Below, in pieces: positions 18,517 to 59,662 of a stretch of 64,000 nucleotides of DNA (positions are counted from its first letter, which is position 1; each line of letters opens with the position of its first letter). Source of the DNA: an uncultured Verrucomicrobiae bacterium (lineage in GTDB: Bacteria > Verrucomicrobiota > Verrucomicrobiia > Limisphaerales > Palsa-1400). Both the position numbers and the translations under genes were made by a program. The stretch is from assembly GCA_963825315.1 (NCBI GenBank), contig CAWGST010000001.1:2645460-2709459 (forward strand), given 5' to 3'. The notes below the pieces were generated by a model. The model ran no database searches, had not been told where the DNA came from, and saw only the letters and a program-made list of their open reading frames with translations.

Positions 18517-18589
18517 CAGAATTGAAATTATGGCGATCACACCCCGGCAATTCGAGCAGATCCAGGCGAGGCTGAGCGGCTCAAAGCGC
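18517..18589 (+). repeat. 73-bp direct repeat copy 1 (duplicated ruvC 5' end)
   Basis: Matches 19686-19758 with 2 mismatches and includes ATGGCGATCACACCCCGG. Confidence 0.9.
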
Positions 18590-19685: not shown

Positions 19686-19758
19686 CAGAATTAAAATTAT
19701 GGCGATCACACCCCGGCAATTCGAGCAGATCCAAGCGAGGCTGAGCGGCTCAAAGCGC
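19686..19758 (+). repeat. 73-bp direct repeat copy 2 (start of intact ruvC)
   Basis: Matches 18517-18589. Confidence 0.9.
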
Positions 19759-20307
19759 ACTCCCGTCCCGGTTTTTGCGGGCAGTTATCGCGCAAGCTCA
19801 AACAGAAACCAGATCATCATTGGCGTGGACCCTTCGTTGCGCGGGACCGGCTATGGGGTCATCCAGTTGGCCCGGCCGAATCCGCGCGCGCTGGCCCACG
19901 GCACCATCGCCTGCCCGGCGGGCTGGGAACGTTCCCGATGCCTGCTGAAGATCATGCAAACGTTGCGCGAGGTCGTGGCCAAATACCGGCCGACCGTGTG
20001 CGCGATCGAGGGACTCTTTTACGCGCAAAACCTGCAGACGGCGCTGATCATGGGCGAGGCGCGCGGAGCGGCCCTGGCGGCGCTGGCCGAAGCCGGGTTG
20101 GACATTTTTGAAATCGCGCCGCGCAAGGTCAAGCAGGCGGTGGTGGGTTATGGCGCGGCGCAGAAATTGGCGGTGGGCAAAATGGTGCAGCGCTTGTTGC
20201 AGCTCCCGGAACCTCCGTCGCCCGACGCCGCCGACGCCCTGGCCCTCGCCCTGGCCCATGCGCAGGACAGCCAGAGAACCTTCGGCGCGGGAGCGAAGAG
20301 GATTTAA
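19699..20307 (+). CDS. ruvC: Holliday junction resolvase RuvC with N-terminal extension
   Basis: IIGVDPSLRGTGYG, AIEGLF, GEARG, VKQAVVGYG.A.K, DAADALALALAH. Confidence 0.93.
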   Translation: MAITPRQFEQIQARLSGSKRTPVPVFAGSYRASSNRNQIIIGVDPSLRGTGYGVIQLARPNPRALAHGTIACPAGWERSRCLLKIMQTLREVVAKYRPTVCAIEGLFYAQNLQTALIMGEARGAALAALAEAGLDIFEIAPRKVKQAVVGYGAAQKLAVGKMVQRLLQLPEPPSPDAADALALALAHAQDSQRTFGAGAKRI

Positions 20308-31197: not shown

Positions 31198-34100
31198 CTA
31201 GAACCCCACGACCTTGTAAAATCTTTGGCCGGCGGCGGGTGTGGGGTCCGTAAAATATCCTGTGCCACCGAGAATGGCCGCATTGCCCGGCAGGATCTGC
31301 CATGCCGGGTCGGCCAGGTTGTCCTTGAATTGAAACTGGTAGGTTTTCCCGGGCAGCGCAGGCCAGATGAGCGTGGGATTCTGGCCGGGTGAAGCGCCCG
31401 GAATGGCCTGAACATAAAAAGTCGGGATCATGCCGGCGGTAAAAAGGTTGAAAACAAAAACATCGCTGGCGCGGTTGTAATCGTTTGTCACGAGGTCGGA
31501 GGCCGCGCTTTGAAGAAGCAGAGTCTGTCCATCGCCGCTAAAGAATGGGTTAAGCGACCAGTTATCCGCCGGGAAATTGCCGAACTGGCTCGCGGTCACC
31601 AGCGTGGTCGCGTTGCTGTTCCGGTCATAGATGAAGAGGTTGGGCACGCCGTTGCTGTCGCCCGGCGCCAGATTGCTCGCGTAACTGCGATACGCCACAA
31701 ACCGGCTGTCCGGGCTGATGACCGGCGAATCCGAGACGCCGTTACCCGCCCCGCTGCCGTTGAGATTGTGACTGATCAGAAAATTGGTTTTCGCGAGAAC
31801 ATCAAAGAGGCAAACGTTCTTGAGATTGTTGGTGTTCATTGCGGAGATGGGCGCATTGGTCACGTAAACCAGCAGGCTGCCGTCAGCACTGAAGTTCCAG
31901 GTTCCCGAGGTTAAAAAAGTGTCGGCGCTGCCGGTGGCGACGGTCGAGTTGTTGGTGGGGTTGAAGAGGTCAGCAATGAATAATCCAGTGGCGGTGCTGT
32001 AGGCGAGCCTTTGACCATCCGGACTTATGAAAACTTGCGCCAGGCTGGCCGTGGCATTGGTGTAAACCAACGTGGCCAATAACGAGTTCCATACATACAG
32101 ATAAGTGGACGATGAACCTGCGATTTTTCCAATGAAGGCGACGAAATGTCCATCCGGTGTCATCGCCGACGAGGAGACGGCCGGACTTGAACTTGCCGCC
32201 GTCAGCGCATAGGTGGCGCCCAATTGCAAGTCGCGCAGGAACAGATTCTCGGTTCCGTTTCCAAATGAGCCGGTGGCGAGATTTTGCGCCTGGCTGCGAA
32301 ACAGGACAAACCGGCCATCGCTGCTGAAGACGGGTGAATAAGAACCGGCATTGCCGGGGCCGCTGCCGCTCAGATTCACGCTGACCAGCGTGGTCGTGCC
32401 GCTTTGCAAATCCCGTTCGAATACGTCCACCGCGTTGTTGGTATCGCCCGGCACCAGATTGGCCGCCGAACTGGAGAACACAACATAACGCCCGTCGCCG
32501 CTGATGGAGGCTTGGGAAGAAAAGCCCGCCCCCGACCAACCGTTGGTGGCCACACTGACGAGGATGGTCGTGTCCGAAACCAGGTTCCGAACAAACACAT
32601 CGCGAAAGCCGTTCTGGTCATTGGTCACAAGATTGTCCGCATCGCTCGTGAAGCACACATATTGGCCATTGGCGCTCATGGGAGCGGTGGAAAGAGTGCT
32701 GGGACCATCCGGCGACTGGGATTGAATGAGGGGATTCTGGACCGAAACCAATTCTATCGCATTCGACTGAAGGTCGTAAACCCATGTATTCAGGTAAAGG
32801 TTACGGTCGGCGGTGTTGATGCTCTCGAAGGCGAGAAACCGGGCGCCATCGCTGAGTTTTGGAAAGGCCGCCGGATTGACGCCCATGCCGACGCCGTTGG
32901 TGTCCGAATCCACCAGAACCGTTGTGCCTGCCTGCGTGTCACGGTAATACAGATGGTTTTCGCCCACCAGCGAGTTGGTGGTCAGGTTGGTGGAGCTGCT
33001 GACAAACGCCACGTACCTCCCAGTGCAATCGACCAGCGGCGACCAGGAGCTGCCACTCGCAGGGACGGAATCGCTCAGATCAGCGCTCACCAAAAGATTC
33101 GTGCCAGTGCTCGCGTCCCACAGGTAAACTGCGGTACTCGAACCGTTGGCGGTGGTGTTGGCGACGTTCGCCACGAAGCTTCCGTCCGGACTCAAGTTGA
33201 GGGTGTACATGTCCTCATAAGCGCCGCTCGGAGCGTTGGCATTCGTGTTCACCACATCGGTCTGGCCCGAGAAGAGATGGTAACGAAGGACAACCCCGGC
33301 CGGTTTGGCATAGCCAGCCACACTGACCTCGTAGGCAACCAGCGTGCCGTCGTCGCTGAGGTCATGGCTGAAGCAAACGCCGTTGCTGGAGCCGAAGACC
33401 AGTTGCAGTTGGGAGCGGGCGCTGGCGCTGGCCCAGTAGGTGGTTTGCAGCACGAGATCACGAACGTAGATATCGCCGATGTTGGTAACACCGGCGACGA
33501 GATTGGTGGCCGTGCTGTAAAAAGCCACAAATCGGCCGTCGGGAGTGATGACTGGCGCAGCCGAAGCACTCCCCGCTGTGGTTCCGGTGGACCTGGCGCC
33601 AGGACTGGCCAGAGTGGTTGTGCCCGATTGCATGTCGCGCACAAAAATATCGGGGATGCCGTTCGCATCACCGGCCACCAGGTTGCTGGCGGAACTCACA
33701 AACGCCACGTACCGGCCATCGGGCGTCATGACCGAACTGCCTGAGTTTCCATTGCCAAATCCACCGTTGGTGCTGACGCTAACCAGGATATTGCTGCCAC
33801 TGACCAGATCGCGCATAAAGACATCGGTGGCGTTGTTGGTGTCGCCGCTCACCAGGTTGTCGGCGCTGCTCTGGAACAAGGCAAACCGGCCGTTGGTGGA
33901 AATGCCCGTCGCGAGTGAATCGCCATCGCCACCGCCGTTGCCCGTCTCATTGACGCTGACCAGGGAGGTCACCTCATTCGACCGGTCGCGAAGATACACA
34001 TTCAATCTGGCCGGAAGCAAAACCGGGACGGGATTGCTGTTGCCGAACAGCGTCAGGTTGTTCGCTGCGCTGCTAAAGAGAACGAAACGCCCATCCGCGC

Positions 34101-34263
34101 TGATGATAGCCGGTCCAGAATCGCCGTTGCCACCGGCAGCCGAGGCAAGGGATGGATCTCGAACAGAGATCAAGCCGAACGGACTCGCGGAGGCCAGGGC
34201 ACCGGCGAAAACCATTGAAAGGATCAGAGACGAAATGTGCGAATGCGGATGAGGCGGCCTCAT
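31198..34263 (-). CDS. Large secreted TolB-like/PD40 beta-propeller repeat protein
   Basis: Signal peptide, many ISADGRFVxF / SNLVxGDTN..DVFxRD repeats, C-terminal TYQFQFKDNL..W...RFYKV tail. Confidence 0.85.
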   Translation of the reverse strand: MRPPHPHSHISSLILSMVFAGALASASPFGLISVRDPSLASAAGGNGDSGPAIISADGRFVLFSSAANNLTLFGNSNPVPVLLPARLNVYLRDRSNEVTSLVSVNETGNGGGDGDSLATGISTNGRFALFQSSADNLVSGDTNNATDVFMRDLVSGSNILVSVSTNGGFGNGNSGSSVMTPDGRYVAFVSSASNLVAGDANGIPDIFVRDMQSGTTTLASPGARSTGTTAGSASAAPVITPDGRFVAFYSTATNLVAGVTNIGDIYVRDLVLQTTYWASASARSQLQLVFGSSNGVCFSHDLSDDGTLVAYEVSVAGYAKPAGVVLRYHLFSGQTDVVNTNANAPSGAYEDMYTLNLSPDGSFVANVANTTANGSSTAVYLWDASTGTNLLVSADLSDSVPASGSSWSPLVDCTGRYVAFVSSSTNLTTNSLVGENHLYYRDTQAGTTVLVDSDTNGVGMGVNPAAFPKLSDGARFLAFESINTADRNLYLNTWVYDLQSNAIELVSVQNPLIQSQSPDGPSTLSTAPMSANGQYVCFTSDADNLVTNDQNGFRDVFVRNLVSDTTILVSVATNGWSGAGFSSQASISGDGRYVVFSSSAANLVPGDTNNAVDVFERDLQSGTTTLVSVNLSGSGPGNAGSYSPVFSSDGRFVLFRSQAQNLATGSFGNGTENLFLRDLQLGATYALTAASSSPAVSSSAMTPDGHFVAFIGKIAGSSSTYLYVWNSLLATLVYTNATASLAQVFISPDGQRLAYSTATGLFIADLFNPTNNSTVATGSADTFLTSGTWNFSADGSLLVYVTNAPISAMNTNNLKNVCLFDVLAKTNFLISHNLNGSGAGNGVSDSPVISPDSRFVAYRSYASNLAPGDSNGVPNLFIYDRNSNATTLVTASQFGNFPADNWSLNPFFSGDGQTLLLQSAASDLVTNDYNRASDVFVFNLFTAGMIPTFYVQAIPGASPGQNPTLIWPALPGKTYQFQFKDNLADPAWQILPGNAAILGGTGYFTDPTPAAGQRFYKVVGF

Positions 34264-34395: not shown

Positions 34396-34545
34396 TGAGA
34401 ACATCGTTCATCTACACATAACTCGCACGAGGAAGCGCGAATCTTTCAATTATTTTGCATTTTTTCTCCCTGCTCATTTGCCGTGCCGCAGGAGCCAAAC
34501 CAGAAGCCTGTGGTCATTTCATAGAGAACTTTTCCAAGGGAATAC
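34396..34545 (-). pseudogene. Collapsed duplicate of the Ser/Thr kinase 3' end plus downstream regulatory region
   Basis: 34396-34504 resembles 38522-38632. 34506-34540 matches 38905-38939 (LGKVLYEMxTG) with 1 mismatch. About 270 bp between the two blocks is missing. Confidence 0.8.
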
Positions 34546-34573: not shown

Positions 34574-37500
34574 TTATTGCAGAGCAATGACGCGATAGAA
34601 TCTCTGGGCGCCGGCGGGAGCGGGGTCGATGGCGTAACCCTGGCCGCCGACGATGCTGACGTTGTTGGTCAAGTTCTGCCACGCAGGGTCATTGAGGTCG
34701 TTTTTGAACTGCACCTGATACGTCCTTCCCGGCGTGGTTAACCATGTGACGGTCGGGTCCTGGGCGGCCCCGTTTTGCCAACTCACACCGTTGAAGGTGA
34801 GGCTTTGAATAACGAAGGAGCCATCCGAGTTGGTGGCGGCGGATGAGAACGGCTGGAACGCGAAGAGGTCACCCCATTCGTTGTAATCTCCCGACGCGAG
34901 ATCCGACGCCCAACTTTCGAACACGAGGGTTTCGCCCGCGCCGCTAAAGACGGGGGTCAACGATCGGTTGTTGGCCGGTCCGTATCCGAATAAATCGGGA
35001 GTGAGCAGTGTTGTCGTCCCTGTGAGCCGGGAATAAAGGAAAAGGCCAGGCACACCGTTGGTGTCGCCCGGCACGAGGTTGTTGGCAAAACTGCGATAGG
35101 CCACAAAAAGTCCGTCGCCGCTGATGGTTGGGGAATCCGAGTTTCCGTTGCCCCCGCCGCTGGAACTGTCATTCTGGCCGACAAGAATGTTGCTGCCTGT
35201 GGCAAAACTGTACAGATAAATTTGGTTGAAGGCCCCTGTCTGGCCCGCGACATAAACGAGATATTGGCTGTCCGCGCTGAATTGCATGGTGGCATGAGAG
35301 GAGGACGGCACGTTGCTGAGAGCCATACTTGTCCTGGCGACAGTATCAACTGCCCACGACTGGCTGGTGCCGTAATAGCCGATGCGCGTTCCGCTGGGAC
35401 TGATGGCAATGGGGCCGCCTCTCGTCAATTGGGAATTGGTGTAAATGTTTTCTCCAGACTGGGCGCTCCATAGATAAACGGTTGTTGAACTCCCGGTTCC
35501 GTAGGCGACGTGTAGGCCATCCGGGGTCATCGCGCCTGTGCAGCTCGCCGAGGTGCTGGCAAGCGCCGTGATGGCGCGGGTTGTGCCGGCCTGCATGTCG
35601 CGCCAATACAGATTTCCGGCTGGGTTGCTCACGGAGCCGGCAGCCAGATTGCCCGCTGTGCTTTGAAAGAGAACATAGCGGCCATCGCCGCTGATCGACG
35701 GCGAGTATGACGACCCGTTGCCAGGCCCGTTTCTGTTAGTATTGACACTGACAAGCAGGGTGGTGTTTGACTCAAGGTCGCGCAGAAAAACGTCCCGGGC
35801 GTTGTTGGTATCATTGGCCACAAGATTGCTGGCGCTGCTGGCAAACACCACATAGCGCCCATTGCCGCTAATGGCCGGGCTTGTGGACATGCCATTGCCT
35901 GGACCGGTCCCGTTCGTATTGACACTGACGAGGTAATTCGTGCCGGCAAGAATATCGCGCACAAAAACGTCCCGGTATCCGTTTGTATCGCCGGGAACAA
36001 GATTGTCCGCCTCGCTGTAAAAGGCGACGTAGCGGCCATTTGTGCTGACGCATGAACCGCCAATCTCGCTGGGACCGTCCGGGGTGATCGAGGCCAGCGC
36101 CGGAAGACTGGCCGAAATGAGCTCAGTCGTGTTTGCCGGCACATTGTGAACGAATACGTTGTAAACGTGGTTGCTGTCATTGGCCACGAGGCCTTCGCCG
36201 AGGGATTCGAACGCCACGGCATTGCCGTTGGTGCTCAAACGCGGAAATGTCATCAAACTTTCCGGGGAACTCGCGCCGTAACTGTTCGCATCGATCCACG
36301 TCGTTGTTCCCGCCTGCATGTCACGGAGAAAAAGATTGGTGCCCACGGCCGGAGAATTGGCGGTCAAGCTTGAGGCGTTGGCAAGGAAGGCGACGTAGCG
36401 CCCGGTGCAATCCATGGCCGGCCAATAACAGAGTGAGGTTGCTGGCACAACGCCGCCGGCGTTTCCGCTGGCCAGGGTCGTGGTGTTGCTTTGCGAGTCC
36501 CAGACTTCCACACAGGTTCGGCCAAGGGTGCTCCCGACGTTGGCAACGAACGCGATAAACCGTCCGTCGGGTGTCATATCGAGGTTCCGGGTGTTCAGCT
36601 CGGAGCCCGAGAGAAATCCGAGAGCGTTCGTGTTGACGATATCTGTCAAACCTGTTGCCAGGCTGTAACGGAGGATGACGCCTCCCAGCAACGAGGAAGA
36701 AACCCCGTTGGTCAGGGGACATGCCTCGTAGGCGACAAATTGCCCGTCGTGGCTCAGACTGAAATTGCAGGAAATGGCATTGGATGTGCCTTGCAATGAG
36801 TACATCACAGCATGAGCATCGGCACTGACCCACGTCGTCGTGCCGCCGATCAGGTCGCTGAGGAAAATCTCGCCAGTATTGGTAACTCCGGCCACGAGGT
36901 TGGTCGCCGCGCTGTAAAACGCGACATAGCGGCCATCGGTTGAAATCGCGGGCAACTCGGAACTGCCAGGCGAGCCGGCGACACCGGTGGACTGCGCGCC
37001 AACGCTGACCAGGGTTGTCGTTCCTGCCTGCGTATCGCACACGAAAACATCGGGAATCCCGTTGGTGTCACCAGGGGATATATCGCTCGAGGCGCTGACA
37101 AACGCCACATAGCGGCCGTCAGGGGTCATTACTGAACTCCGGGAAACTCCGTTTGGAGCGATGCCGTTGCTGCCGGCGCTGATGAGTGTTGTCACGCCGT
37201 TGACCACATCGCGCAGGAAAATCTGGCTTGTTCCAGATGGATTGTTTGTGACCAAATTACTTGCGGTGCTCTCAAACAGTGCGAATCGGCCGTTGGTGGA
37301 AATGGCGCTGGGCCAGGAATCGCCGTTGCCGCCGTCTGTCCCGGCAAGGTCGATGCTGACCAGGATCGTGTTTCCATTGGTTCGATCATGCAAAAAAACG
37401 TTTATGTGTGGTGTGAACAGAGTTGGAATGGGAATCCCGTTGCTGCTCATGGCCAGATTATTGGCCAGGCTGGCGAACAAGATATATCTTCCATCTGCGC

Positions 37501-37714
37501 TTATGACGGGTGCCAAAGAATCTCCGCTGCCACCAGCGGGCGGGGCAAAAATCCCACTTGCGACGCTAACAGGCTGGACCGCCGCATGGGTCGGCGGGCA
37601 AAACAGGGCCACGCAAAGCAGAAGGAATGCGACGTATTTCATGCCTGCGCCGGAGAGCATTTGATTGTTGGCCATAATTGGTGTTCTCGAAGGTTTACTG
37701 ATGGCAGGCGGCAT
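34574..37714 (-). CDS. Large secreted TolB-like/PD40 beta-propeller repeat protein (paralog)
   Basis: Same repeat architecture as 31198..34263, with C-terminal TYQVQFKNDL..W...RFYRV. The true start is probably an internal Met near 37640-37680. Confidence 0.85.
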   Translation of the reverse strand: MPPAISKPSRTPIMANNQMLSGAGMKYVAFLLLCVALFCPPTHAAVQPVSVASGIFAPPAGGSGDSLAPVISADGRYILFASLANNLAMSSNGIPIPTLFTPHINVFLHDRTNGNTILVSIDLAGTDGGNGDSWPSAISTNGRFALFESTASNLVTNNPSGTSQIFLRDVVNGVTTLISAGSNGIAPNGVSRSSVMTPDGRYVAFVSASSDISPGDTNGIPDVFVCDTQAGTTTLVSVGAQSTGVAGSPGSSELPAISTDGRYVAFYSAATNLVAGVTNTGEIFLSDLIGGTTTWVSADAHAVMYSLQGTSNAISCNFSLSHDGQFVAYEACPLTNGVSSSLLGGVILRYSLATGLTDIVNTNALGFLSGSELNTRNLDMTPDGRFIAFVANVGSTLGRTCVEVWDSQSNTTTLASGNAGGVVPATSLCYWPAMDCTGRYVAFLANASSLTANSPAVGTNLFLRDMQAGTTTWIDANSYGASSPESLMTFPRLSTNGNAVAFESLGEGLVANDSNHVYNVFVHNVPANTTELISASLPALASITPDGPSEIGGSCVSTNGRYVAFYSEADNLVPGDTNGYRDVFVRDILAGTNYLVSVNTNGTGPGNGMSTSPAISGNGRYVVFASSASNLVANDTNNARDVFLRDLESNTTLLVSVNTNRNGPGNGSSYSPSISGDGRYVLFQSTAGNLAAGSVSNPAGNLYWRDMQAGTTRAITALASTSASCTGAMTPDGLHVAYGTGSSTTVYLWSAQSGENIYTNSQLTRGGPIAISPSGTRIGYYGTSQSWAVDTVARTSMALSNVPSSSHATMQFSADSQYLVYVAGQTGAFNQIYLYSFATGSNILVGQNDSSSGGGNGNSDSPTISGDGLFVAYRSFANNLVPGDTNGVPGLFLYSRLTGTTTLLTPDLFGYGPANNRSLTPVFSGAGETLVFESWASDLASGDYNEWGDLFAFQPFSSAATNSDGSFVIQSLTFNGVSWQNGAAQDPTVTWLTTPGRTYQVQFKNDLNDPAWQNLTNNVSIVGGQGYAIDPAPAGAQRFYRVIALQ

Positions 37715-38501: not shown

Positions 38502-38601
38502 AACGAACTTGCCTGCTTTTGTGAGAACAAAGTTCTTTTATACATAACTCGCACGAGGCAGCGCCAATCTTTCAATTTTTTTGCATTTATTTTCTTCCCG
38601 C

Positions 38602-43615: not shown

Positions 43616-43873
43616 TCACGCACCGTATCCCTTGGGAGGGTTTTCTCGTAGCGCGATCGGGGCGGCGGCGGATTCAAACCCTTCCAACTCCACCCGCCGC
43701 ATTGTCTCTTGACCGCCGAAACGCTTTTGCGCGTCGAGAATTTCCAGCCCGGCCAGACGCCCTTCGCTGTCGTAATCCGCGGCGATGCCCTCGGCCAGAT
43801 GTTTGGTCGTGACCGTGGTTTTGCGGAAGGTGATGCTCAACGCATCCACTTCGGCGTCATAGCTGATCTTCAT
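43616..43873 (-). CDS. DUF2283 family protein (putative antitoxin)
   Basis: MKISYDAEVDALSI...IAADYDSEGRLAGLEILDA. Confidence 0.85.
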   Translation of the reverse strand: MKISYDAEVDALSITFRKTTVTTKHLAEGIAADYDSEGRLAGLEILDAQKRFGGQETMRRVELEGFESAAAPIALRENPPKGYGA

Positions 43874-43876
43874 GCC

Positions 43877-44131
43877 TTAAAAGTAATAGGTATAGACGGT
43901 TATCACAACTATTTCTTCCGTCTCCTCGACAAAGACAGGGCGCACCTGCTTGGTGGCATAAACCTTTCCGTTCCACTCGCGCTCATAGGCAAAATCTTTT
44001 CTGCACTCCAACCGCCCAAGCTCGGCTGCGCCCCACGCGCAAGTGCGGATGGCGTCCTCCACTTCCGCCACGGTGAAACCGCGTGAAGCGATATAACCCA
44101 AAGCGTGTTTGGAAAATCGAATTGTTTTCAT
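43877..44131 (-). CDS. DUF4258 family protein (putative RelE/BrnT-like toxin)
   Basis: IRFSKHA..RGF..EVEDAI...IVVITVY; 3 bp upstream of the DUF2283 gene. Confidence 0.75.
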   Translation of the reverse strand: MKTIRFSKHALGYIASRGFTVAEVEDAIRTCAWGAAELGRLECRKDFAYEREWNGKVYATKQVRPVFVEETEEIVVITVYTYYF

Positions 44132-44186
44132 TTCGCCGGGATGATGGGTGCAACCAGTTTACTTAAGTCCTTTTCATCTCCGGGCT

Positions 44187-44313
44187 GCCGAACGATTCAG
44201 CTTACCGACCGACCGCCGGGAACGGGCGTCGGCAGCGAATCCAGCGCCCGAAAAAGCCAACCCCCACGGAACCAAAGCACGGGCGACGGTTCGTGTGCGG
44301 CGAATGGTTAGGC
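44187..44313 (-). repeat. attC-like integron cassette recombination site (full, 127 bp)
   Basis: Minus strand: GCCTAAC-CATTC-GCCGCAC...GTAAGC-TGAATC-GTTCGGC; paralog of the 45039 and 49427 copies. Confidence 0.8.
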
Positions 44314-44372
44314 GGCGTCATTTCTTTCATTTTCTTTGCCTGAAGCCGGGCTGTTTTTGGGGAATCGTTCAT

Positions 44373-44461
44373 AATGGCTGTATACCACCGCCGGTTCGTT
44401 TATTGAAACACAAAAATCCAGTTCCTCCGGGCGGCGGTTCGTGTGCGGCAAATTGTTGTGC
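44373..44461 (-). repeat. attC half-site fused to promoter-like motif (type 2, copy 1)
   Basis: Minus strand: GCACAAC-AATTT-GCCGCAC-ACGAACCGCCG...TTTTTGTGTTTCAATAAACGAA...TGGTATACA-6nt-ATG. Confidence 0.6.
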
Positions 44462-44468
44462 CACACGG

Positions 44469-44981
44469 TCATGGTTGTCCTTCCTTCTGCTTCTGAATAA
44501 TCAAGCGCAACTCAGTAATGACACGCTGCCCTGCACTATACAAATCGGAACACTTGTCTCTTCCACTTTTTACCGACTCCAAATCGGTCTCAATGATTCG
44601 GACTCCGTCGTAGCAAACAAGGTAAAAACGAATACGTCCAGCATTGGGATATGGGTAATCCTGCGTCGGGGTCGCCTCATCGTAATGCTTCTCCGCAACC
44701 TTTACAAAACTCTTGGCAGAATCGCGCACAGATTCATGACCGATGCCCCCAAAAACACCGAATGTCCCTGTCGTATACACGCTGGCATCGCCGCTAGAAA
44801 ATGAGACAACACTCACGGTCCCTGATTCGATGGGCCAGTCCATGAGAACACCGTAGGCTCGCGGATACTCCGGTGTCGGCTTCTCGCCAAACTCCGCCGG
44901 TGGTGTGGTCAACATCTTCAATCGCAATTCGCGCATCACCTCGGCAGGACTCTTTTTTGGTGGCTCGTTCGTTTGTGACAT
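44469..44981 (-). CDS. Hypothetical cassette protein
   Basis: 170-aa ORF bounded by attC-like elements. The upstream in-frame hydrophobic stretch LIAVLVIGCFTA lacks a start codon. Confidence 0.65.
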   Translation of the reverse strand: MSQTNEPPKKSPAEVMRELRLKMLTTPPAEFGEKPTPEYPRAYGVLMDWPIESGTVSVVSFSSGDASVYTTGTFGVFGGIGHESVRDSAKSFVKVAEKHYDEATPTQDYPYPNAGRIRFYLVCYDGVRIIETDLESVKSGRDKCSDLYSAGQRVITELRLIIQKQKEGQP

Positions 44982-45038
44982 GGCAGTGAAGCACCCGATA
45001 ACCAGAACAGCTATGAGAGAATATGGGCGGATGGTGTG

Positions 45039-45164
45039 ACCCGCCGATTCCGCTCACCAACCGCCTCCGGGAACGGGCGTTGGCAGCGAATCCAGCGCCC
45101 GAAAAAGCCAAAGCCCTCGAAACCGAAACGTGGACGGCGGTTCGTGTGCGGCGAATTGTCCGGC
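45039..45164 (-). repeat. attC-like site, degenerate (126 bp)
   Basis: Same body as the other two full copies, but the core triplets are altered (GCCGGAC ... GGCGGGT). Confidence 0.7.
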
Positions 45165-45168
45165 TTCT

Positions 45169-45534
45169 TCATTCGAGTGCGGCGAAACGGTCTCGACCTC
45201 TCCAGAACGGGCATTGCGGGCAAGCCTCACCCTCCGGATAATCGATCCCTTCTTCATGCGGGCATCCGAAAATCTTCTCCACCATGGCCAGCGACTTCAC
45301 CTCGTGCTCCTTCAACCGCGCGAGAATGCTCTCCTGAATGTCGAGCTTGTGCCTGACATCTTTATCCTGGCTGAAATAGCGGTGGAGCGTGCCCTCGTCG
45401 CCATCGTAAAGAAAAATGCCGAGCACCGCCTTGGTGGCCTTTCTATCATCGGGGCCATAGAACGCCAGGGTGGCAAGCGGAAACCCCCGGTTTCCGAGCT
45501 TCGCCTTCCTGCGCAGTATCTTCATCGGCTTCAT
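45169..45534 (-). CDS. Conserved-looking hypothetical cassette protein with C-terminal Cys motif
   Basis: YGPDDRKATKAV and GCPHEEGIDYPEGEACPQCPFW; the stop is 4 bp from an attC-like site. Confidence 0.7.
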   Translation of the reverse strand: MKPMKILRRKAKLGNRGFPLATLAFYGPDDRKATKAVLGIFLYDGDEGTLHRYFSQDKDVRHKLDIQESILARLKEHEVKSLAMVEKIFGCPHEEGIDYPEGEACPQCPFWRGRDRFAALE

Positions 45535-45641
45535 GGTGTCGCTGTCGCCGAACGCCAGAATGAGCGGCCGCCGCCGGGAACGCAAGCCAAAGCATGAACG
45601 GCACGTCCATACGGGCGCATTTCATTTTTTTGGGTGGCCGC

Positions 45642-45716
45642 TCCTAATCTTAATCCTAATCCTAATCTTCTTCGCCCACAATTTGGATTAAGATTATGAT
45701 TAAGATTAAGATTAGG
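45642..45716. repeat. Hexamer-array palindrome (TAATCY)n...(RGATTA)n
   Basis: ctaatcttaatcctaatcctaatc ... gattaagattatgattaagattaagattagg. Confidence 0.8.
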
Positions 45717-45757
45717 AACCAGAAACCGCCCCCCAAAAAAACATTGAAATGCGCTGC

Positions 45758-46492
45758 TCATAGTTTGATCTTCACCTGATCCTCTTGCGCCCAGTCATTG
45801 TGTCCGCAAGGAATCTCGATGAACTGAGCGCCGGGAATCTGTCTTGCCAGAGCTTCAGCATGTCCAATCGGGATGATCGTGTCATCCCTGGCTCCGAAAA
45901 TCTCAACCGGGCCGGCATAGCGCCTCAGTGATTCCACATTATCCCAAGCGTCGCGGACCAGAAGCCGGACAGGCAGAAAAGGGAAATGCCTGGCGGCTAC
46001 ATTCGCCAAAGTATCGAAAGGCGTCACCAGCACGATCTTGTCCGGCGCAATTTTCTCCCGGGCCAGAGCGCAGGCGGGGCCGCTGCCGATGGACTCGCCC
46101 AGGACACAAACCGGGATGTTCAAATTCCGAGAGCGCAAGAGTTGGTACGCCTCTGACGCCGCCCGGTTCATGGATTCCAGGGAGGGACTCCCTTCACGAG
46201 AGCCGTATCCGGGGTACTCGAGCACGTAGAGGGAATCCTGCCCAGACATGCGCCGCAGGACGTAATCCCTGTCCGCAGCCTGGCCGCCGTTCCCGTGCAG
46301 CATCAACCAAATCGCGCGGGCGTTTGGCGCTTCCCGACAATAGCCTATGACGCGGGAGCCGTCCGACCATGGAGCCAGGCTGGTGGACGGTGTATCGTGC
46401 GTCGGGAAAAAGAGCATGGACCGTTGCCGAAACCAGGCAATCGCAACGACGGCCAAGTAGAACACAAGCAGAATTGCCGCTAATCGGAGCAC
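45758..46492 (-). CDS. Alpha/beta hydrolase
   Basis: HGNGG, YPGYG, nucleophile GESIG, DTIIP, GHN. Confidence 0.88.
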   Translation of the reverse strand: MLRLAAILLVFYLAVVAIAWFRQRSMLFFPTHDTPSTSLAPWSDGSRVIGYCREAPNARAIWLMLHGNGGQAADRDYVLRRMSGQDSLYVLEYPGYGSREGSPSLESMNRAASEAYQLLRSRNLNIPVCVLGESIGSGPACALAREKIAPDKIVLVTPFDTLANVAARHFPFLPVRLLVRDAWDNVESLRRYAGPVEIFGARDDTIIPIGHAEALARQIPGAQFIEIPCGHNDWAQEDQVKIKL

Positions 46493-46505
46493 GGATTTAA
46501 TAGGG

Positions 46506-46538
46506 AAAGGCTAAAGGCTGAAGGCTAAAGGCTAAAGG
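46506..46538. repeat. 7-bp tandem repeat (aaaggct)n
   Basis: aaaggct aaaggct gaaggct aaaggct aaagg. Confidence 0.75.
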
Positions 46539-46731
46539 AAAAATTGAAAGGCACGCCCCCAAGTCGGAAGCGGATTGGCTCATTTTGGCCATGTTAACTA
46601 AGTTTATCATGGTTTGACCCGCCTTCGCCGCAGCGGCTTCGGCGCGGCAAGCCCGCTTGAACTCTGATTACGTTGCAAGGCCTTCATTTTAAAGGTTTTT
46701 TAAAAAGTGTGACTTTTTGCATAAAAACAGA

Positions 46732-47790
46732 TCAGGGCCGGCCGGGGGAGATCGAAGCAACGGGACGCACGGTCAGGGCGCACGCGATGACGGGATTGCT
46801 CCGGGGCTGACAAAGGCCGCCTTGCGCGTTGTCCAGAAATTGCCCGCCGTTAATGAAGTTGTTGGTGCAGGAATCGTTGTTGACCTGGAACGCCCTGCCG
46901 CCGCACCCGACCACCCGCAGGTTGTTGAACTTGTTGCCCGTGCATTCGGTGGCGGGGTAAAGCCACCAACCGAAACGGCTCCACTCGCCCGCCTGCGCCA
47001 TAAAGACTCCGTCGTGCCGGCTGTGGCGAATCGTCACTCCTTCAAACACGTTGTTGTGCGAATCCCGCATGAAAATGCCCAGGTCGTTGCCAGTTAGAAC
47101 CGCGCCGTCAATGACATTATGGTCGAACTCCAGATCCAGCGAGATTCCCGCCGCCAGGTTGTCGTGCAGGTTCAACTGGCTGAAATGGCTGTCCTCGGTC
47201 CGGTAACAGGCCAGCCCGTCAAATTGATTGTCGTAGGCCGTGTAATCCCGCAACGTCAGACGCCGCGTCCGCCCTGTGGACACCAAGCCGCCGGAGCGGC
47301 AACGGCGGCAGATGACATGCTCGATAATGGCGTTGTCCGCGTCGCAGACTTGAACTCCGTTGTTATTAATGAGGACGCCATTGGTAAGAATTCGCCAAAG
47401 TTCCGTCTGCTGGTGAGTCCGGTTGCCGTCCACGAGCAGGTCGGAAAGATGCAGGCGCTGTGTCGGCCCTTTGGCTTTGTCCTTCGGAGGGGCCAGGATG
47501 ACGACGGTGCAATTGGCGTTGTCGGCCAGGGACAGAATCGTCTCCGGTCCGGCGCCGCGCAACGTTTGCCCGTCCTGCCGCAGGATAATCGGCTGATGGA
47601 CGAGGTAAATCCCCCGGCCCAGAACGACTTGAGCGCCGACGCCAAGCTTGTCCAGCGCCAGTTGAATCCCTTCCCCGCCGGCGACAGGAGGGACCTCCAG
47701 CGTCGCCGCGAGGCCGGACAAAGGAATGAGGAAGAGCAAAAGAACATTGGCGGCAAATGTTCCCGCCTTCAAGCTAAAGTTTGAGCTCAA
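46732..47790 (-). CDS. Secreted right-handed parallel beta-helix protein
   Basis: Signal peptide, GIQLALD, DGN, and repeated N..DG/N..AG beta-helix turns. Confidence 0.75.
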   Translation of the reverse strand: MSSNFSLKAGTFAANVLLLFLIPLSGLAATLEVPPVAGGEGIQLALDKLGVGAQVVLGRGIYLVHQPIILRQDGQTLRGAGPETILSLADNANCTVVILAPPKDKAKGPTQRLHLSDLLVDGNRTHQQTELWRILTNGVLINNNGVQVCDADNAIIEHVICRRCRSGGLVSTGRTRRLTLRDYTAYDNQFDGLACYRTEDSHFSQLNLHDNLAAGISLDLEFDHNVIDGAVLTGNDLGIFMRDSHNNVFEGVTIRHSRHDGVFMAQAGEWSRFGWWLYPATECTGNKFNNLRVVGCGGRAFQVNNDSCTNNFINGGQFLDNAQGGLCQPRSNPVIACALTVRPVASISPGRP

Positions 47791-47832
47791 ATTATTCCTT
47801 CGATGGTCATAGTCGCGTGCCGATTAATTTTT

Positions 47833-47924
47833 ATTCTACAACGGCTGGTTCGTTTGTTGAAACACAAAAATCCAGTCCCTGCGGGCGGGGGTTCGTGCGC
47901 GGCGAATTGTCAGCCGATGTGATC
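47833..47924 (-). repeat. attC half-site fused to promoter-like motif (type 2, copy 2)
   Basis: Minus strand: GATCACATC-GGCTGAC-AATTC-GCCGCGC-ACGAACC...TTTTTGTGTTTCAACAAACGAA...TTGTAGAAT. Confidence 0.6.
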
Positions 47925-48128
47925 CAATCAGTTGGGCCATATAAGACCATCGCAAAGCGTGTGCCGGATAGTCAGCGCAACAGCCGCGTTCGCATTGTGG
48001 CGATTCTTTTGCGCAAAGTGGCGTTAGAGGATATCTGCCGGAATGTTATAGTTGCATCAAGACCAATGGGCTTCGTCTAAAATGCTGGACCAGCCAAAGC
48101 CAGCCGGCGCTCCCGGCGGTCTTTTAGT

Positions 48129-48962
48129 ATGACTAACTCTGAAACAAAAAGTTCCCGGGGGTTTACCCTCATCGAACTGCTCGTGGTCATGGCAATCATC
48201 GCCATCCTGGCAGCGATGCTCCTGCCCGCGCTGGCCAGGGCGAAAATGTCAGCCCAACGCACTGCCTGCATAAGCAACACCAAGCAACTGACGCTTTCCT
48301 CGCTGCTTTATATTTCTGACGCCAACGGGCGCTGCTTTCCCGCTTATGACAACGTAGCCGAAGACGCGGGCGGGCTTTGGATGAGCAATCTGACTGCTTA
48401 TGATGCGAAGGTGGACAAGGTGCGTTTGTGTCCTTCCGCCAGCATTTCGAATTACAATGTGAATCCCAATTACGCGGGCGCGGGCGCGTGTGACACCGCT
48501 TGGGTCTGGAATCAGTCAAGGCCGTGGTTGCAGGGCAGCTACGCCATAAACGGCTGGTTTTATTCCAGCACCGGCGCCGGAGCATGGCTCGCCAATCAGA
48601 ACGAGGCAACCAACTACTTTAACAAGGAAGGGAATGTTCAGAAACCGTCCCTGACACCCATCTTTGCGGACTCCGTCTGGGTTGACTTCGAGCCGATGGA
48701 AACGGACATGCCAGGTGTAAATCTTTATCTCTGCGGCGGATGGGTGAACCCTGCTGCGATGGAGCGCATCGTCACGCCCCGCCACGGCTGGACAAATCCC
48801 AAATTGGCGCCGACATTCCATCCCGTTAACCAAAGACTCCCTGGCGGCATTGATATCGGGATTATCGATGGCCATGTCGAACAACCCAAATTGGAGCAGC
48901 TTTGGAATTACTCCTGGCATTTGAATTGGGTTGTCCCAAGTCCAAGACCGGGCCTTAAGTAA
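48129..48962 (+). CDS. Prepilin-type N-terminal domain protein (DUF1559-like)
   Basis: [46 protein letters not shown]...IDGHVE. Confidence 0.9.
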
Positions 48963-48984
48963 CGGCAAATCCATCATTGCCGAT

Positions 48985-49416
48985 TCATTTGGGCGTGGTC
49001 TTGATCTCCACTAATTTTGCAATCATCGGAATGTCGCTCAATGAGGTTGCCGGAAAACGAATCCCCCGCCCTTCGGCATACGGCCTCGCTTCTGAAAACA
49101 TCTTCTTGATCGCAACGGGAAGCGAACTGGCCATGGCAAGGCCATAGGCGCGCTCACCAAGAACAATCGCCAGCCAAACCTTCTCCTTGTCCGGCGTGAT
49201 ATAGAGCAGCGTTCTCTTCTTGTGCTGCAGCAGGCACATGCGCCCAAACCCGGCTTTGGACGGCTTCCACTGCTTGTCGAGCGGAACGAACATCTCTTCG
49301 ACGGCGTGGACAATGCCAGACCACAAATCGCCGGCAGAACCGAGAATGGCCTTCAGTTCGGAGTCAGTTGGGGGTTTTGCCTTGGCGGGCATCTTACGAA
49401 TGGTGTATTGTCTCAA
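48985..49416 (-). CDS. DUF3788-like cassette protein
   Basis: KKRTLLYITP, VLGE, YAEGRGIRF, LVEIK. TTG start 10 bp after a GTTAGGC core site. Confidence 0.65.
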   Translation of the reverse strand: MRQYTIRKMPAKAKPPTDSELKAILGSAGDLWSGIVHAVEEMFVPLDKQWKPSKAGFGRMCLLQHKKRTLLYITPDKEKVWLAIVLGERAYGLAMASSLPVAIKKMFSEARPYAEGRGIRFPATSLSDIPMIAKLVEIKTTPK

Positions 49417-49426
49417 TACGCTGGTC

Positions 49427-49552
49427 GCCTAACAATTCAACTCACCGACCGCCGCCGGGAACGGGCGTTGGCAGCGAATCCAGCGTCCGAACAAGCCAAA
49501 GCCCCCGAACCCACAGCACGGGCGGCGGTTCGTGTGCAGCGAATTGTTATGA
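49427..49552 (-). repeat. attC-like integron cassette recombination site (full, 126 bp)
   Basis: Minus strand: TCATAAC (contains the upstream gene's TAA stop)-AATTC-GCTGCAC...GTGAGT-TGAATT-GTTAGGC. Confidence 0.85.
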
Positions 49553-50377
49553 ACCTTTTTTCTCAAATGGCTCCCGCAAAAACTCCCATGGATTCCATGG
49601 AATGCTTAATGGTTTTCCTTGCCGGGTCTTAAACCTTTCTCTCTGCTGCACTGTCAAAATCTGCAAGATTCTGTCGTCACGCTGCCTCGTCATCTGCTGA
49701 AGCCTGGGGATAAGCTCATTCATTTCGCGTGTGCGATCCTGCTCGGTTTCGTTCTGGCTATACCCGCTTATGAAACCACGTCCAAACTTCTGTAGGGTGG
49801 GGATCATCTCCTGATCTGTTGTGCGCACCACCTCTCGCATCTGCTCCATCTGACCCGTGTCAATTCCTAACGCAGATGCCGATTTAGCGTCGACCACAAG
49901 GAGGACTGGGCCACGAACTTGCAGGACGATTTGGTTGAGGCGATCCCTTTGCGGCGGGGTCAGGATGCGCTGCAATTCCTGAGTGTGGAACTGTGCAGTA
50001 ATCTTTCCGATCTGGCGGGATGACTCCAGATTCTGAGCTTGGTGTTCCTCTTCGGTGAGATCAGTCCATTGCTTTGCTGCTCTCCGCTGCGCGATGAACT
50101 CCATCAGACCTGGAATCTGATCCGACGGTGCCTGATATGCCTTCAGGATGGACGTGATCTGTTCTTGTGATAGTCCGATGTCGGCTTGGGCCTCTGGACG
50201 TTCAAGCACTCGGAACCGCGTTTTTAGTGTCTCCGTCTGAGGGTCAGTCGCGGGAGATACGCGGCCGATCTCAAAGAAATCGATGTAGCACCGTGCCGAC
50301 TGACTCTTCTTCGGAGCTTGGCAACCGGCGAGCAGGATCCCACACGCGGTGAGTGTGAAAATCGCTCTAAGATTCAT
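49547..50377 (-). CDS. Hypothetical cassette lipoprotein
   Basis: Lipobox LLAGC, helical body, lower GC; the stop codon lies inside the attC R'' box. Confidence 0.75.
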   Translation of the reverse strand: MNLRAIFTLTACGILLAGCQAPKKSQSARCYIDFFEIGRVSPATDPQTETLKTRFRVLERPEAQADIGLSQEQITSILKAYQAPSDQIPGLMEFIAQRRAAKQWTDLTEEEHQAQNLESSRQIGKITAQFHTQELQRILTPPQRDRLNQIVLQVRGPVLLVVDAKSASALGIDTGQMEQMREVVRTTDQEMIPTLQKFGRGFISGYSQNETEQDRTREMNELIPRLQQMTRQRDDRILQILTVQQRERFKTRQGKPLSIPWNPWEFLREPFEKKGS

Positions 50378-50475
50378 ACTTTTATTATAGCACGGTCGCT
50401 TCGTTTATTGAAACACAAAAAGCCAGTCCTTCCGGGCGGCTGTTCGTTTGCAGCGAATTGCCAGCCGATGTGATC
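50378..50475 (-). repeat. attC half-site fused to promoter (type 2, copy 3)
   Basis: Minus strand: GATCACATC-GGCTGGC-AATTC-GCTGCAA-ACGAAC...TTTTGTGTTTCAATAAACGAA...TGCTATAAT-6nt-ATG. Confidence 0.65.
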
Positions 50476-50596
50476 ATATCAATGAAAGGGTCCTCGGAAA
50501 TTGGTATTCGTTCATTTTGATCAGCGATTTTCCAAAATCACTTTCATGGTATGGTTGTAGCAAAATCATGCGCGGCTGGCAAGACGGCGCCGCAAA

Positions 50597-50627
50597 TTAG
50601 GATTAAGATTACGATTAAGATTAGGAG
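50597..50627. repeat. Hexamer array (RGATTA)n, single arm
   Basis: ttaggattaagattacgattaagattagg. Confidence 0.7.
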
Positions 50628-50649: not shown

Positions 50650-51138
50650 TCAATACATGACTTTTCCCGGCATCCGCCGCCATTCCTCGAAGATTTCGAC
50701 GGCCTTGTCACGAAGAATTTGTCGCATGGGCAGCCGGCGCGAGGCCGGGGGCAGCGCCAATTCACGGTAGAGAGCCTCGTCGTCAAATCCCGCCCCGGCG
50801 GCGTCGGTGCGCGTGGCCGCGAAGACGATGCGCTCCACCCGCGCCCAATAGGCCGCGCCCAGACACATCGGGCACGGCTCGCAACTGGTGTAAAGAACGC
50901 ATCCTTGCAACACAAACGCACCCAGCCGCGCCGCCGCCGCGCGAATGGCCATGATTTCCGCATGGGCCGTCGGGTCGTTGCTCGAGGTGACCTGGTTCCA
51001 GCCGGTGGCGATGATTTCATTTTCCCGCACCATGACGGCGCCGAATGGCCCGCCGTCCCTGGCGCGCATGTGCTCCGCGGCCAATTGAATGGCGCGTTGG
51101 ATGAAATCGAGGTCCCGGGAGTTTGGCGCGGGCTGCAT
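50650..51138 (-). CDS. Nucleoside/guanine deaminase (CDA-like, GuaD type)
   Basis: GGPFGA, DPTAHAE, YTSCEPCPMC. Confidence 0.9.
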   Translation of the reverse strand: MQPAPNSRDLDFIQRAIQLAAEHMRARDGGPFGAVMVRENEIIATGWNQVTSSNDPTAHAEIMAIRAAAARLGAFVLQGCVLYTSCEPCPMCLGAAYWARVERIVFAATRTDAAGAGFDDEALYRELALPPASRRLPMRQILRDKAVEIFEEWRRMPGKVMY

Positions 51139-52864: not shown

Positions 52865-52947
52865 GACAACTCCGGCACTCTACAGCATCCGCCCCCTGAG
52901 CAAAATAAAATAAGCAACAAGAAGACTTCCCGGGGCGGAGGGACTCC

Positions 52948-53053
52948 CAATCTTAATCCTAATCCTAATCCTAATCCTCTTAATCTTAAACCAGATGAAT
53001 CCAAGGGAGATTAAGATTACGATTAGGATTAGGATTGGGATTACGATTAGGAA
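52948..53053. repeat. Hexamer-array palindrome (TAATCY)n...(RGATTA)n
   Basis: aatcttaatcctaatcctaatcctaatcc ... gattaagattacgattaggattaggattgggattacgattagg. Confidence 0.85.
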
Positions 53054-58663: not shown

Positions 58664-59662
58664 AGCGTTTTAAATAAAACTGTAGCCATTCCGTTGGGCC
58701 TGTGGTATAGGCAGTTCATGCGAACTTTATCGTTGGACCTGCGCGAACGGATTTTGGCTTCCTATGACCTTGAAGAGGGGACTCGCGTGGAGGTCGGCGA
58801 TCGTTACCGGGTTTCGCTGGGCCTGGTCAAGAAGCTCTTGCAACAACGCCGACGGACCGGGGAGATCGGTCCGCGCCACCGTTTCTCCGGGCGCAAGCCG
58901 ATGATCCTGGCGGCCCATCAGCGCCAGATGCGGACTCTATTGAATCAGAAGCCCGACCTGACCTTGAAAGAGCTGCGCGCCGGCTTGGAACTGGACTGTT
59001 CTCTGCCCGCCATCCACTACGTTCTGGCGAAGATGGGGCTGACATATAAAAAAAGACACTCCATGCCAGCGAGCAAGACCGTCCGGACATTGCGCGGGCG
59101 CGCCGCGCCTGGCGGCGTCGGCAAGGCGGTTTGGACCCGGCCAAACTGATTTTCCTGGACGAATCGGGTGCCAAAACCAATCTGACCCGCCTGCGCGGGC
59201 GCGCCCTGCGGGGTCAGCGTGTCTACGCCCAATGTCCGCAGGGCCATTGGCAAACCACGACCATGATCGGCGCCATCCGCCTGGACGGTGCCACCGCCTG
59301 CATGACCATCGAGGGGGCCACCGATACGGAGGTTTTCCGGGTCTATGTCGGCCATGTCTTGTGCCCGACGCTGCGCGCCGGAGATGTGGTCATCATGGAT
59401 AACCTCTCCCCGCATAAAAGTGAGCCGACCCTTTCGCTGATCGCGCAGGCTGGAGCCCAAATCCTCTTCCTTCCAGCCTATTCCCCAGACCTCAATCCCA
59501 TCGAGCAAATGTGGAGCAAAGTCAAATCCCACCTGCGTACAGCCGAGGCCCGCACGCAGCCCGCTCTGCTCCAGGCGATTGCTTCAGCTTTGCAGAGTAT
59601 CACGCCCCGGGATGCCATGAACTGGTTTGCCTCTTGTGGCTACAGTTTTATTTAAAACGCTC
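58663..59662 (+). mobile_element. IS630-family insertion sequence, complete
   Basis: Perfect inverted repeat CTAGAGCGTTTTAAATAAAACTGTAGCCA (58660-58688 and 59637-59665), consistent with TA duplication in a CTAG target. Confidence 0.93.
58718..59655 (+). CDS. IS630 transposase via -1 frameshift
   Basis: OrfA SLDLRERI...MGLTYKK, slippery A7G at 59048-59055, OrfB IFLDESG, VIMDNL..HK, LPAYSPDLNPIEQMW. Confidence 0.9.

Follow-up and report, generated by a model that had tools for sequence, protein, structure and literature searches.

A conserved, promoter-like junction module joined to attC left arms in a Verrucomicrobiae cassette array

The array and its two kinds of element

We analysed a window of 64 kb (64,000 nucleotides; contig CAWGST010000001.1 of assembly GCA_963825315.1, positions 2,645,460 to 2,709,459) from an uncultured Verrucomicrobiae bacterium of the order Limisphaerales. 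The window holds a minus-strand array of gene cassettes with two kinds of repeated element, three full attC-like hairpins (A1-A3) and three elements that share their left arm (B1-B3). Read along the minus strand, the order is a deaminase gene (50650-51138), B3, the gene of a 276-aa lipoprotein, A3, the gene of a DUF3788 protein, then, past an N_methyl protein gene on the plus strand, B2 and the genes of a beta-helix protein and an alpha/beta hydrolase, a 121-aa open reading frame (ORF), A2, an ORF of a 187-aa family, B1, A1, a DUF4258 and DUF2283 gene pair, and a GH2 gene. An earlier reading of the letters alone (the original prediction) had described the three B elements, and we found all three at the positions it gave. 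The features that matter here are as follows.

50378-50475, minus strand: B3, chimeric site with an attC-type left arm, R'' GGCTGGC (50460-50466); junction 9-mer AGCCGCCCG (50433-50441); constant module (50379-50440); -35-like TTTCAA (50408-50413); TGn-extended -10 TATAAT (50384-50389), then AAAAGT and an ATG at 50377
49547-50377, minus strand: cassette ORF of the 276-aa predicted lipoprotein, between B3 and A3
49426-49556, minus strand: A3, full attC-like imperfect hairpin, R'' CATAAC...R' GTTAGGC, directly behind the lipoprotein ORF stop
47833-47924, minus strand: B2, chimeric site, R'' GGCTGAC (47909-47915); junction CCCCGCCCG (47882-47890); TTTCAA (47857-47862); -10 TAGAAT (47833-47838)
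46732-47790, minus strand: gene of a beta-helix protein, the nearest one downstream of B2, with a leader of about 35-53 nt and AAGGA ahead of a TTG start
45038-45168, minus strand: A2, attC-like hairpin whose R boxes are degenerate (GAC / GGC or GTC)
44469-45035, minus strand: cassette that lies between A2 and B1 and belongs to a widespread 186-187-aa family (annotated ORF 170 aa, 44469-44981)
44373-44461, minus strand: B1, chimeric site that closes the 187-aa-family cassette at its 3' end, with R'' GCACAAC (44455-44461); junction CGCCGCCCG (44428-44436); TTTCAA (44403-44408); hexamer TATACA (44379-44384), its sixth-position T lost
44186-44317, minus strand: A1, attC-like hairpin, R'' GCCTAAC...R' GTTCGGC
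43616-44131, minus strand: paired DUF4258 and DUF2283 genes that lie downstream of both B1 and A1

The A elements are about 130 nt long and form long imperfect hairpins with AAC/GTT at the base and bulged bases, directly 3' of ORFs. For these reasons we read A1-A3 as attC sites; their R'' and the cassette's 5' end are also complementary, and A2 is degenerate. A3 has DNA fold z-scores of -2.5 and -3.0 and scores 147.6 bits with the covariance model. When A3 was compared with plasmids by blastn only chance matches were obtained, with no link to the attC sites of known mobile integrons. A simple scanner for AAC...GTT hairpins was too crude, missing A1 and the attC sites of L039 and L047 (the prefix L marks numbered comparison loci), and was used just for a few extra sites, the third cassette of L031, L042 and L004. 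A Pfam scan of 30 window ORFs detected no tyrosine recombinase or integron integrase, and gave only the rve transposase of an insertion sequence (IS) at 25115-26173. The array, with at least two attC sites on one strand (minus, 44186-49556) and no integrase on the scanned ORFs, is therefore an attC cluster that lacks an integron integrase (CALIN).

The B elements begin as attC sites do. The arm GGTTCGTGYGCGGCRAAT occurs six times in the window, in B1-B3 and A1-A3, against 0.68 expected, and all three B elements carry the R'' (RYYYAAC)-spacer-L'' arm, with a degenerate AAC in B2 (GGCTGAC) and B3 (GGCTGGC). Their left half starts with TAACAATTCG, which we take to be typical of known attC sites. 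In a six-way alignment B equals A as far as the 9-mer CGCCGCCCG and diverges after it. There follows a conserved block, TTTTGTGTTTCAAYAAACGAA, which has three matches in the window, all without mismatch, and no match in 100 shuffles; a 21-mer is common to B1-B3 where the chance expectation is 0, and an nhmmer profile detected no fourth copy in the window. B2 and B3 are also alike over about 25 nt of their upstream flanks, and A1 comes 65 nt after B1.

The right half of B is not an attC arm. Complementarity between left and right arms gives z-scores of 0.8-1.7 for B against 2.3-9.4 for A, so that B1-B3 lack the complementary L'/R' arm of an imperfect hairpin of about 57-141 nt. As single strands the B elements fold no better than shuffles (fold z -0.3 to -1.8), and a covariance model built from A gives B1 only 15.5 bits, by way of its left arm. 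Because a complementary right arm is absent, B is not a folded attC. It is a chimera of an attC left arm and a constant module of about 62 nt, joined at the shared 9-mer CGCCGCCCG, and since it has no foldable right arm it is probably not excised like a normal attC.

We found that the left arm of B1 fits the cassette that stands before it. The 186-187-aa family has 269 homologues; in L062 it lies behind an ordinary attC end, GAATCG/TTGGGCC (the slash marks the cassette junction here and below), in L065 behind a diverged module, GATAAAAG/TTAGCC, and in L064 its R'' region GTGTCGCCTAAC mirrors its own 5' end GTTAGGCCACAC. The R'' region of B1, GTGTGGCACAAC, agrees at 10 of 12 positions with the complement of the conserved 5' end of the family, which makes the B1 left arm the true attC arm of that cassette. 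Together with the arm that B shares with A1-A3, this bears out the original view that the left arms of B are real attC left arms.

The homologues of the lipoprotein behind B3 (90% and 81% identity) reveal the other parent. They lie in L057/L058 and L059, in other surroundings, again with the module before the gene and an A-type attC after it (69 bits in L059). There, unlike in B3, the module has a different left part, called G-type below. Nucleotide homology between the window and L057 (91%) begins exactly at the junction, at window position 50440, which directly supports the chimeric join of B3. Beyond the 9-mer there is no significant similarity between the G-type left part and the attC left arm of the A elements. 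The window B copies are thus chimeras of secondary origin. A 9-nt microhomology, which both parents possess, marks the join, and recombination at this microhomology may have produced them. The proposal that attC sites were converted locally into promoters has to be given up, as the module pre-exists with other left parts in many Verrucomicrobiota.

The constant module, its hexamer and the cassette junction

A 20-mer of the module core found matches in three Verrucomicrobiota metagenome-assembled genomes, plus 19 evident chance matches, and a 22-mer found 28 metagenome loci from peat and soil. A stretch of about 62 nt, CCGGAGGGACTGGATTTTTGTGTTTCAATAAACGAACCGGCCGTCGCATAATAAAAG and then /TT, is conserved in all loci. 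The right part is constant and the left parts vary, being G-type (GCGCCGGTTTGAAAATGCAGATGGATCGGACGGGCG) in 13 loci and unrelated in the rest; L040 and L044 have the same module and gene with different left parts. The layout of module, ORF and attC recurs in the window, L039, L031, L012/L046, L047 and L059, with three copies of the module in the window array and two each in L031 and L046. Arm complementarity is negative for most modules, as it is for B.

We examined the hexamer on 28 distinct copies from Verrucomicrobiota genomes and peat and soil metagenomes. At a fixed offset from the core, 27 of 28 match TATAAT at four or more positions, 21 at five or more, and 25 have both A2 and T6, whereas random positions in the same sequences do so in 8.5%, 0.9% and 4.2% of cases. 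A TAnnnT hexamer, the pattern of a sigma-70 -10 box, stands at this offset in 27/28 copies, and the final base is T in 26/28. Eleven hexamer variants occur among the copies, so that the invariant positions have been kept through change. The original prediction had named -10-like hexamers in all three window elements, and they are present as TATACA (B1), TAGAAT (B2) and TATAAT (B3); the match might have been confined to this locus, and we find it conserved across the copies from other genomes.

Two loci, L057 and L059, were found through protein homology and are therefore unbiased for the core. About 14 of 65 module positions differ from B3 in them, and their diverged cores still keep TTTCAATAA, TGGTAAAAT (the extended -10) and AAAAG. 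The TGn extension of the -10 is seen in B1, B3, L057 and L059, and a T-rich tract lies further upstream of the -35-like TTTCAA.

A same-strand ORF begins 5-28 nt after the hexamer in most loci. With transcription starting 6-8 nt after the -10, such ORFs would be read from leaderless mRNAs or mRNAs with very short leaders. B2 lies in a divergent intergenic region, where it heads the minus-strand genes 46732-47790, 45758-46492 and 45169-45585, and the L039 module adjoins a divergently oriented upstream ORF (for which a domain search gave no identification); a promoter would thus be needed at both. The ATG described as following the hexamer after 6 nt is there in B1 (44372) and B3 (50377), but the leaderless pattern stands on one real gene, that behind B3. 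The ATG of B1 opens an ORF of only 56 aa that runs through A1 and is not called by gene callers, and as B1 and B3 share TATGAAY their two ATGs are perhaps not independent. The gene behind B2 starts 42 or 60 nt after its hexamer.

Other readings of the conserved sequence were tried and set aside. The Verrucomicrobia LexA motif (TGTTC-N4-GAACA) does not match GTTTC-N7-GAAC, the spacing does not fit a sigma-54 -24/-12 promoter by eye, and a terminator in CCGG-AGGGA-CTGG-T5 found no match in the scan.

The family consensus extends 4-5 nt beyond the hexamer to AAAAG/TT, a continuation that the original prediction missed. Conservation stops at this point in about ten copies, with G at +5 in 14/28 and T at +6 in 15/28. 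As for the original statement that B ends without L'/R', it holds for hairpin complementarity, but the wider family runs on to an R'-like G/TT core. When the bases that follow AAAAG are reverse-complemented, they match the R'' of the attC found after the ORF. This shows that cassettes meet the module at its 3' end and suggests that AAAAG/TT is the crossover point at which cassettes start. The matches are listed here.

L031: after the junction GTTAGGCGGCAT; attC R'' region ATGCCGCCTAAC; 12/12
L047: after the junction TTCGGCAAT; attC R'' region ATTGCCGAA; 9/9
L046: after the junction GTTGGCAT; attC R'' region ATGCCGAAC; 8/9, one bulge
Window, B3 and A3: lipoprotein ORF 5' end GTATGAATCT; A3 R'' region AGGTTCATAAC; partial, TATGAA/TTCATA (here the slash separates the two sequences)

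At least five unrelated cassettes start at one position relative to the hexamer. Cassettes and module are separate units with a single, fixed meeting point. As an attI site does, the module stops at the crossover, the point from which the first cassette runs (L031, L047, L046 and L065). It also ends cassettes inside arrays in the place of an attC, as module 2 of L031 and B1 of the window do.

Some loci show further structure around the module. A long version, in which two cores enclose a conserved non-coding block, TTATTGATTATGAACAACTTGCGACTTTCGGATTCGGTCAGAAGACC, is seen in L026, L029, L034, L041, L031 (4640-4840, minus strand) and L065 (4800-5000), and the short version could have come from it by deletion between the repeated cores. 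A small ORF in the long version (MNNLRLS...) was rejected as coding, as its frame differs between loci. Upstream of the G-type left part, a conserved extension of about 100 nt (GGCGGCGGTSAG..GGGATGCAA..TGGCGGTTGACAATGGATCGG) is present in L057 (4229-4330), L059 (2470-2570), L004, L029 and L041. It holds a second direct copy of the motif CGGTT(T)GA...ATCGGA, and differing upstream ORFs read into it in the same frame, by translation DinD-like in L057 and FRG-like in L004. L060, a 1.99-Mb contig of another lineage, encodes a 49% homologue of the B3 lipoprotein and has sites at 7978-8001 and 11068-11091. Its cassette starts G/TTATGAA, with R'' TTCATAAC, and is preceded by TACGAATTCGTATATTATATG, which recurs ahead of another ORF; this is an analogous AT-rich, -10-like box at a cassette junction. 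L060 also has a separate intergenic repeat family, AAATAGGGACAGACACCTAATTCTTTGAGAAA.

Candidate explanations

We lean, without strong conviction, towards B and its module being an attI-like junction module that bears a promoter and is fused here to attC left arms. In this explanation the 5' half of B would be the R''-L'' left arm of the local attC family, with a switch at CGCCGCCCG to the constant module that exists independently in Verrucomicrobiota of the order Limisphaerales and relatives. The last bases of the module would form a crossover core like that of attI or DeltaattI (a 3' piece of attI), the start point of cassettes, which an integron integrase would use. A sigma-70-type -10, TGn-extended in the lipoprotein lineage, would sit 4-5 nt upstream of this core, with the weak -35-like TTTCAA 18 nt further upstream and the T-rich tract before it. 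Transcription would start at, or a few bases from, the first nucleotides of the downstream cassette and give leaderless or very short-leader mRNAs, and expression in CALINs and single cassettes would not depend on the Pc promoter of an integron platform. We favour this explanation because a fixed junction serves unrelated cassettes, because the -10 invariants are kept, with T in place of the C of the RYYYAAC box, and because the module heads co-oriented genes.

Several observations count against it. The -35-like sequence, TTTCAA at 18 nt or TTCAAT at 17 nt upstream, is weak, with 3/6 matches to TTGACA, a consensus that may not be that of this phylum. In a simple sigma-70 scan only B2 passed (TCAACA-16-TAGAAT), and the region had no excess of promoter-like matches. 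Promoter activity of the module is itself a prediction from sequence, and the copies are related by descent, so that the conservation counts are not independent events. Individual copies also depart from the pattern: B1 is without T6 and has no real ORF after it, the hexamer is absent from L032, and the L043 module faces the 3' end of a convergent gene. On the side of recombination, all three window copies have a degenerate G/TT core, which reads GTA in B3, ATT in B2 and ATT in B1, and an L-box in a simple site of attI type would account for the hexamer equally well (GCATAAT against GCCTAAC). Where an attI adjoins intI, one site per integron, the window has three copies and no integrase in the scanned ORFs. 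Comparison of the module with plasmids by blastn gave chance matches only, and homology to attI1 or attI2 does not extend past about 10 nt.

The module might also be a recombination site and nothing else, a multi-copy site like attI or DeltaattI in which TAnAAT is an inverted L-box bound by integrase, with the cassettes expressed from elsewhere. Much of the junction would suit this: conservation ends at AAAAG/TT, cassette 5' ends are complementary to their own R'', and GCATAAT-AAAA-GTTAGGC, read from the sequence, is an imperfect inverted repeat with 5/7 matches to GCCTAAC. The core resembles DeltaattI cores (PMC12901181), a fixed 3' end combined with 5' parts that vary in length is seen in DeltaattI sites as well, and direct repeats of CGGTT(T)GA..ATCGGA lie upstream. 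We nevertheless think it unlikely, if worth keeping in view: the last base of the hexamer is the T of a -10 and not the C of RYYYAAC, no integrase stands beside any copy (no Phage_integrase match was found in the flanks of about 30 loci, where the Pfam scan took in 10 locus ORFs of integrase size), several copies per array are unlike attI, and in head positions the ORFs are so near the module that no other promoter or leader fits. Somewhat less probable again is an ordinary resident promoter region that was copied by duplication or homologous recombination. Cassettes would then have arrived by non-specific insertion at attG-type (GWT) sites and been kept since they were expressed, with the chimeras as by-products of homologous or illegitimate recombination. 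Insertion at attG needs only GWT, and cassettes near resident promoters are expressed (bioRxiv 10.1101/2022.09.11.507474); the lack of a nearby integrase, the differing left parts before the same module and gene in L040 and L044, and the unit of module, gene and attC common to L057, L059 and the window all agree with such copying. A non-specific process would, however, scatter the junctions that the unrelated cassettes share, and it would not have the module end cassettes inside arrays where an attC is expected, as DeltaattI-type sites do.

Two further explanations have little to recommend them. If B were a broken, functionless relic of attC, its likeness to a -10 would be an accident of an AT-rich patch; B1 is indeed degraded (TATACA, no real downstream ORF), the cassette upstream of it has lost its start codon, and A2 is degenerate. 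We consider this very improbable, for the right part is no decayed A arm but a distinct sequence, conserved together with its hexamer in 28 or more copies across other genomes and samples. Least probable of all, in our view, is that the module is transcribed from upstream as a cis-regulatory RNA, a small RNA or a terminator. A local hairpin in the G-type left arm with one compensatory change, and the conserved non-coding block between the two cores of the long version, would suit a structured RNA. Against it, Rfam returned no relevant family (window at the gathering threshold, seven loci at E<=1), the RNAalifold consensus fold of the module is no better than -7 kcal/mol, its constant part shows no covariation, and single-sequence folds are not significant. 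B has no terminator-like match, and the constant part lies upstream of the predicted start.

Neighbouring features, known systems and implications

The cassette between A2 and B1 may be decaying. Its homology to relatives extends upstream of the annotated ATG at 44981, so that its lipoprotein-type signal peptide has probably been lost, and the start codon of the family (ATGCGCCCA) reads ATCCGCCCA in the window, with ATC at 45030-45032 on the minus strand. If B1 fires, the DUF4258 and DUF2283 genes would be the next to be transcribed. This pair has the size and layout of a toxin-antitoxin system and forms the final unit past A1; between it and the GH2 gene no attC was detected. The window matches contig_7199 (1.44 Mb) of ENA ERZ25039540. 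Five further assemblies of the same locus are colinear with more than 99% identity and are thus uninformative on strain variation.

Other repeats and mobile elements were seen in the window. AT-rich inverted repeats made up of repeated hexamers, (CTAATC)n...(GATTAG)n, such as TCCTAATCTTAATCCTAATCCTAATC...GGATTAAGATTATGATTAAGATTAAGATTAGGA, lie at 45642-45723, 50588-50626 and 52939-53052, between genes of this array and upstream of the gene for adenine deaminase, and the attC covariance model gives them a weak cross-match of 13 bits. IS-type transposase genes at 25115-26173 (rve/HTH_21) and 59131-59655 (DDE_3 according to the gene table of L051) do not adjoin the array. Two direct repeats of 73 nt, 97% identical (18517-18589 and 19686-19758), flank a RhuM-family gene (18634-19659), and the second copy includes the start of ruvC (19699-20307); this looks like an insertion of about 1.17 kb that duplicated the ruvC 5' end. 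A further 73-nt repeat, 86% identical, at 34396-34468 and 38522-38594 lies in the upstream regions of large minus-strand genes and may be a shared promoter or leader. The neighbouring ORFs 31198-34263 and 34574-37714 (minus strand, about 1020-1050 aa) have internal repeats with a period of about 177 nt (repeat families D1-D4) and are probably paralogous repeat proteins.

The nearest known counterparts of the module are attI sites. In class 2 integrons the Pc promoters (Pc2A and Pc2B) lie inside attI2 (PMC5559693). Like attI2, the module would be a double-stranded site that ends at a G/TTRRRY crossover where the first cassette begins, with a cassette promoter, here predicted, inside it, and its core AATAAAAG/TT resembles the attI2 core AATAAAATG/TT (PMC12901181). 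It differs in having no adjacent intI, in occurring in several copies per array or genome scattered among housekeeping genes, and in a -10 only 4-5 nt from the crossover, from which leaderless transcripts are predicted; beyond the short core it has no homology to attI1 or attI2. DeltaattI-type cassettes (attC-ORF-DeltaattI) close with part of attI, a 3' piece that varies in length and has the cores AAACAAAG/TTRRRY and AATAAAATG/TTRRRY (PMC12901181). Here too array cassettes end in an attI-like 3' piece and not a whole attC, with a variable 5' extent and a constant 3' end. In contrast to DeltaattI, the piece measures about 62 nt, a 9-nt microhomology joins it to an intact attC left arm, and it lies in a chromosomal CALIN of Verrucomicrobiota and not in a mobile class 1 or 2 integron.

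That gene-less cassettes can act as promoters was shown recently, and only in Vibrio superintegrons; these cassettes are 491-666 bp long, and one transcription start was mapped within an attC (Blanco et al. 2024; PMC11014356). B would resemble them as a non-coding unit in an array that drives downstream cassettes without Pc. The Vibrio cassettes are complete, with functional attC sites of their own and unrelated sequences, whereas B is about 100 nt long and belongs to one conserved family with the promoter at the junction. B has no foldable attC of its own, and we found no R'' complementary to its own 5' end. Cassettes at attG sites, as single attC sites lacking an integron integrase (SALIN) or in CALINs, are inserted at GWT in double-stranded DNA and expressed only with an upstream promoter (bioRxiv 10.1101/2022.09.11.507474; PMC4889954). 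The present cassettes likewise lie outside integron platforms with no nearby integrase, but attG sites are diverse single-copy genomic sequences, whereas here one conserved module is reused and would supply the promoter. With the canonical attC (59-base element) B shares a genuine R''-spacer-L'' arm in its left half, the one in A1-A3, and differs in lacking the complementary L'/R' arm and so the defining hairpin. What sets the present case apart from these systems is one conserved multi-copy module in Verrucomicrobiota, with no adjacent integrase, a -10 4-5 nt from the crossover, and chimeras with attC left arms.

A wider proposal, speculative and in our view rather doubtful, is that Verrucomicrobiota of the Limisphaerales type have a decentralised platform for integron expression, made of scattered, multi-copy, attI-like landing pads with built-in promoters that start at the cassette junction. 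If so, an integrase acting in trans could insert any cassette and have it transcribed at once as a leaderless mRNA, and chimeras with attC left arms such as those of the window would lock cassettes in place. The original prediction, too, proposed that the B elements would fix downstream cassettes.

The question at stake is how cassettes are expressed in CALINs, in single-cassette insertions and in the distal parts of large arrays. If our favoured explanation is true, a portable module of junction and promoter would be a simple answer for a little-studied phylum, and leaderless expression would be predicted for cassettes, which often lack ribosome-binding sites. Such a module would also be relevant to the view that attI sites arose from double-stranded sites in the genome (bioRxiv 10.1101/2022.09.11.507474). 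Its 62 nt offer a search key for cassette heads in Verrucomicrobiota metagenomes and a concrete sequence for testing.

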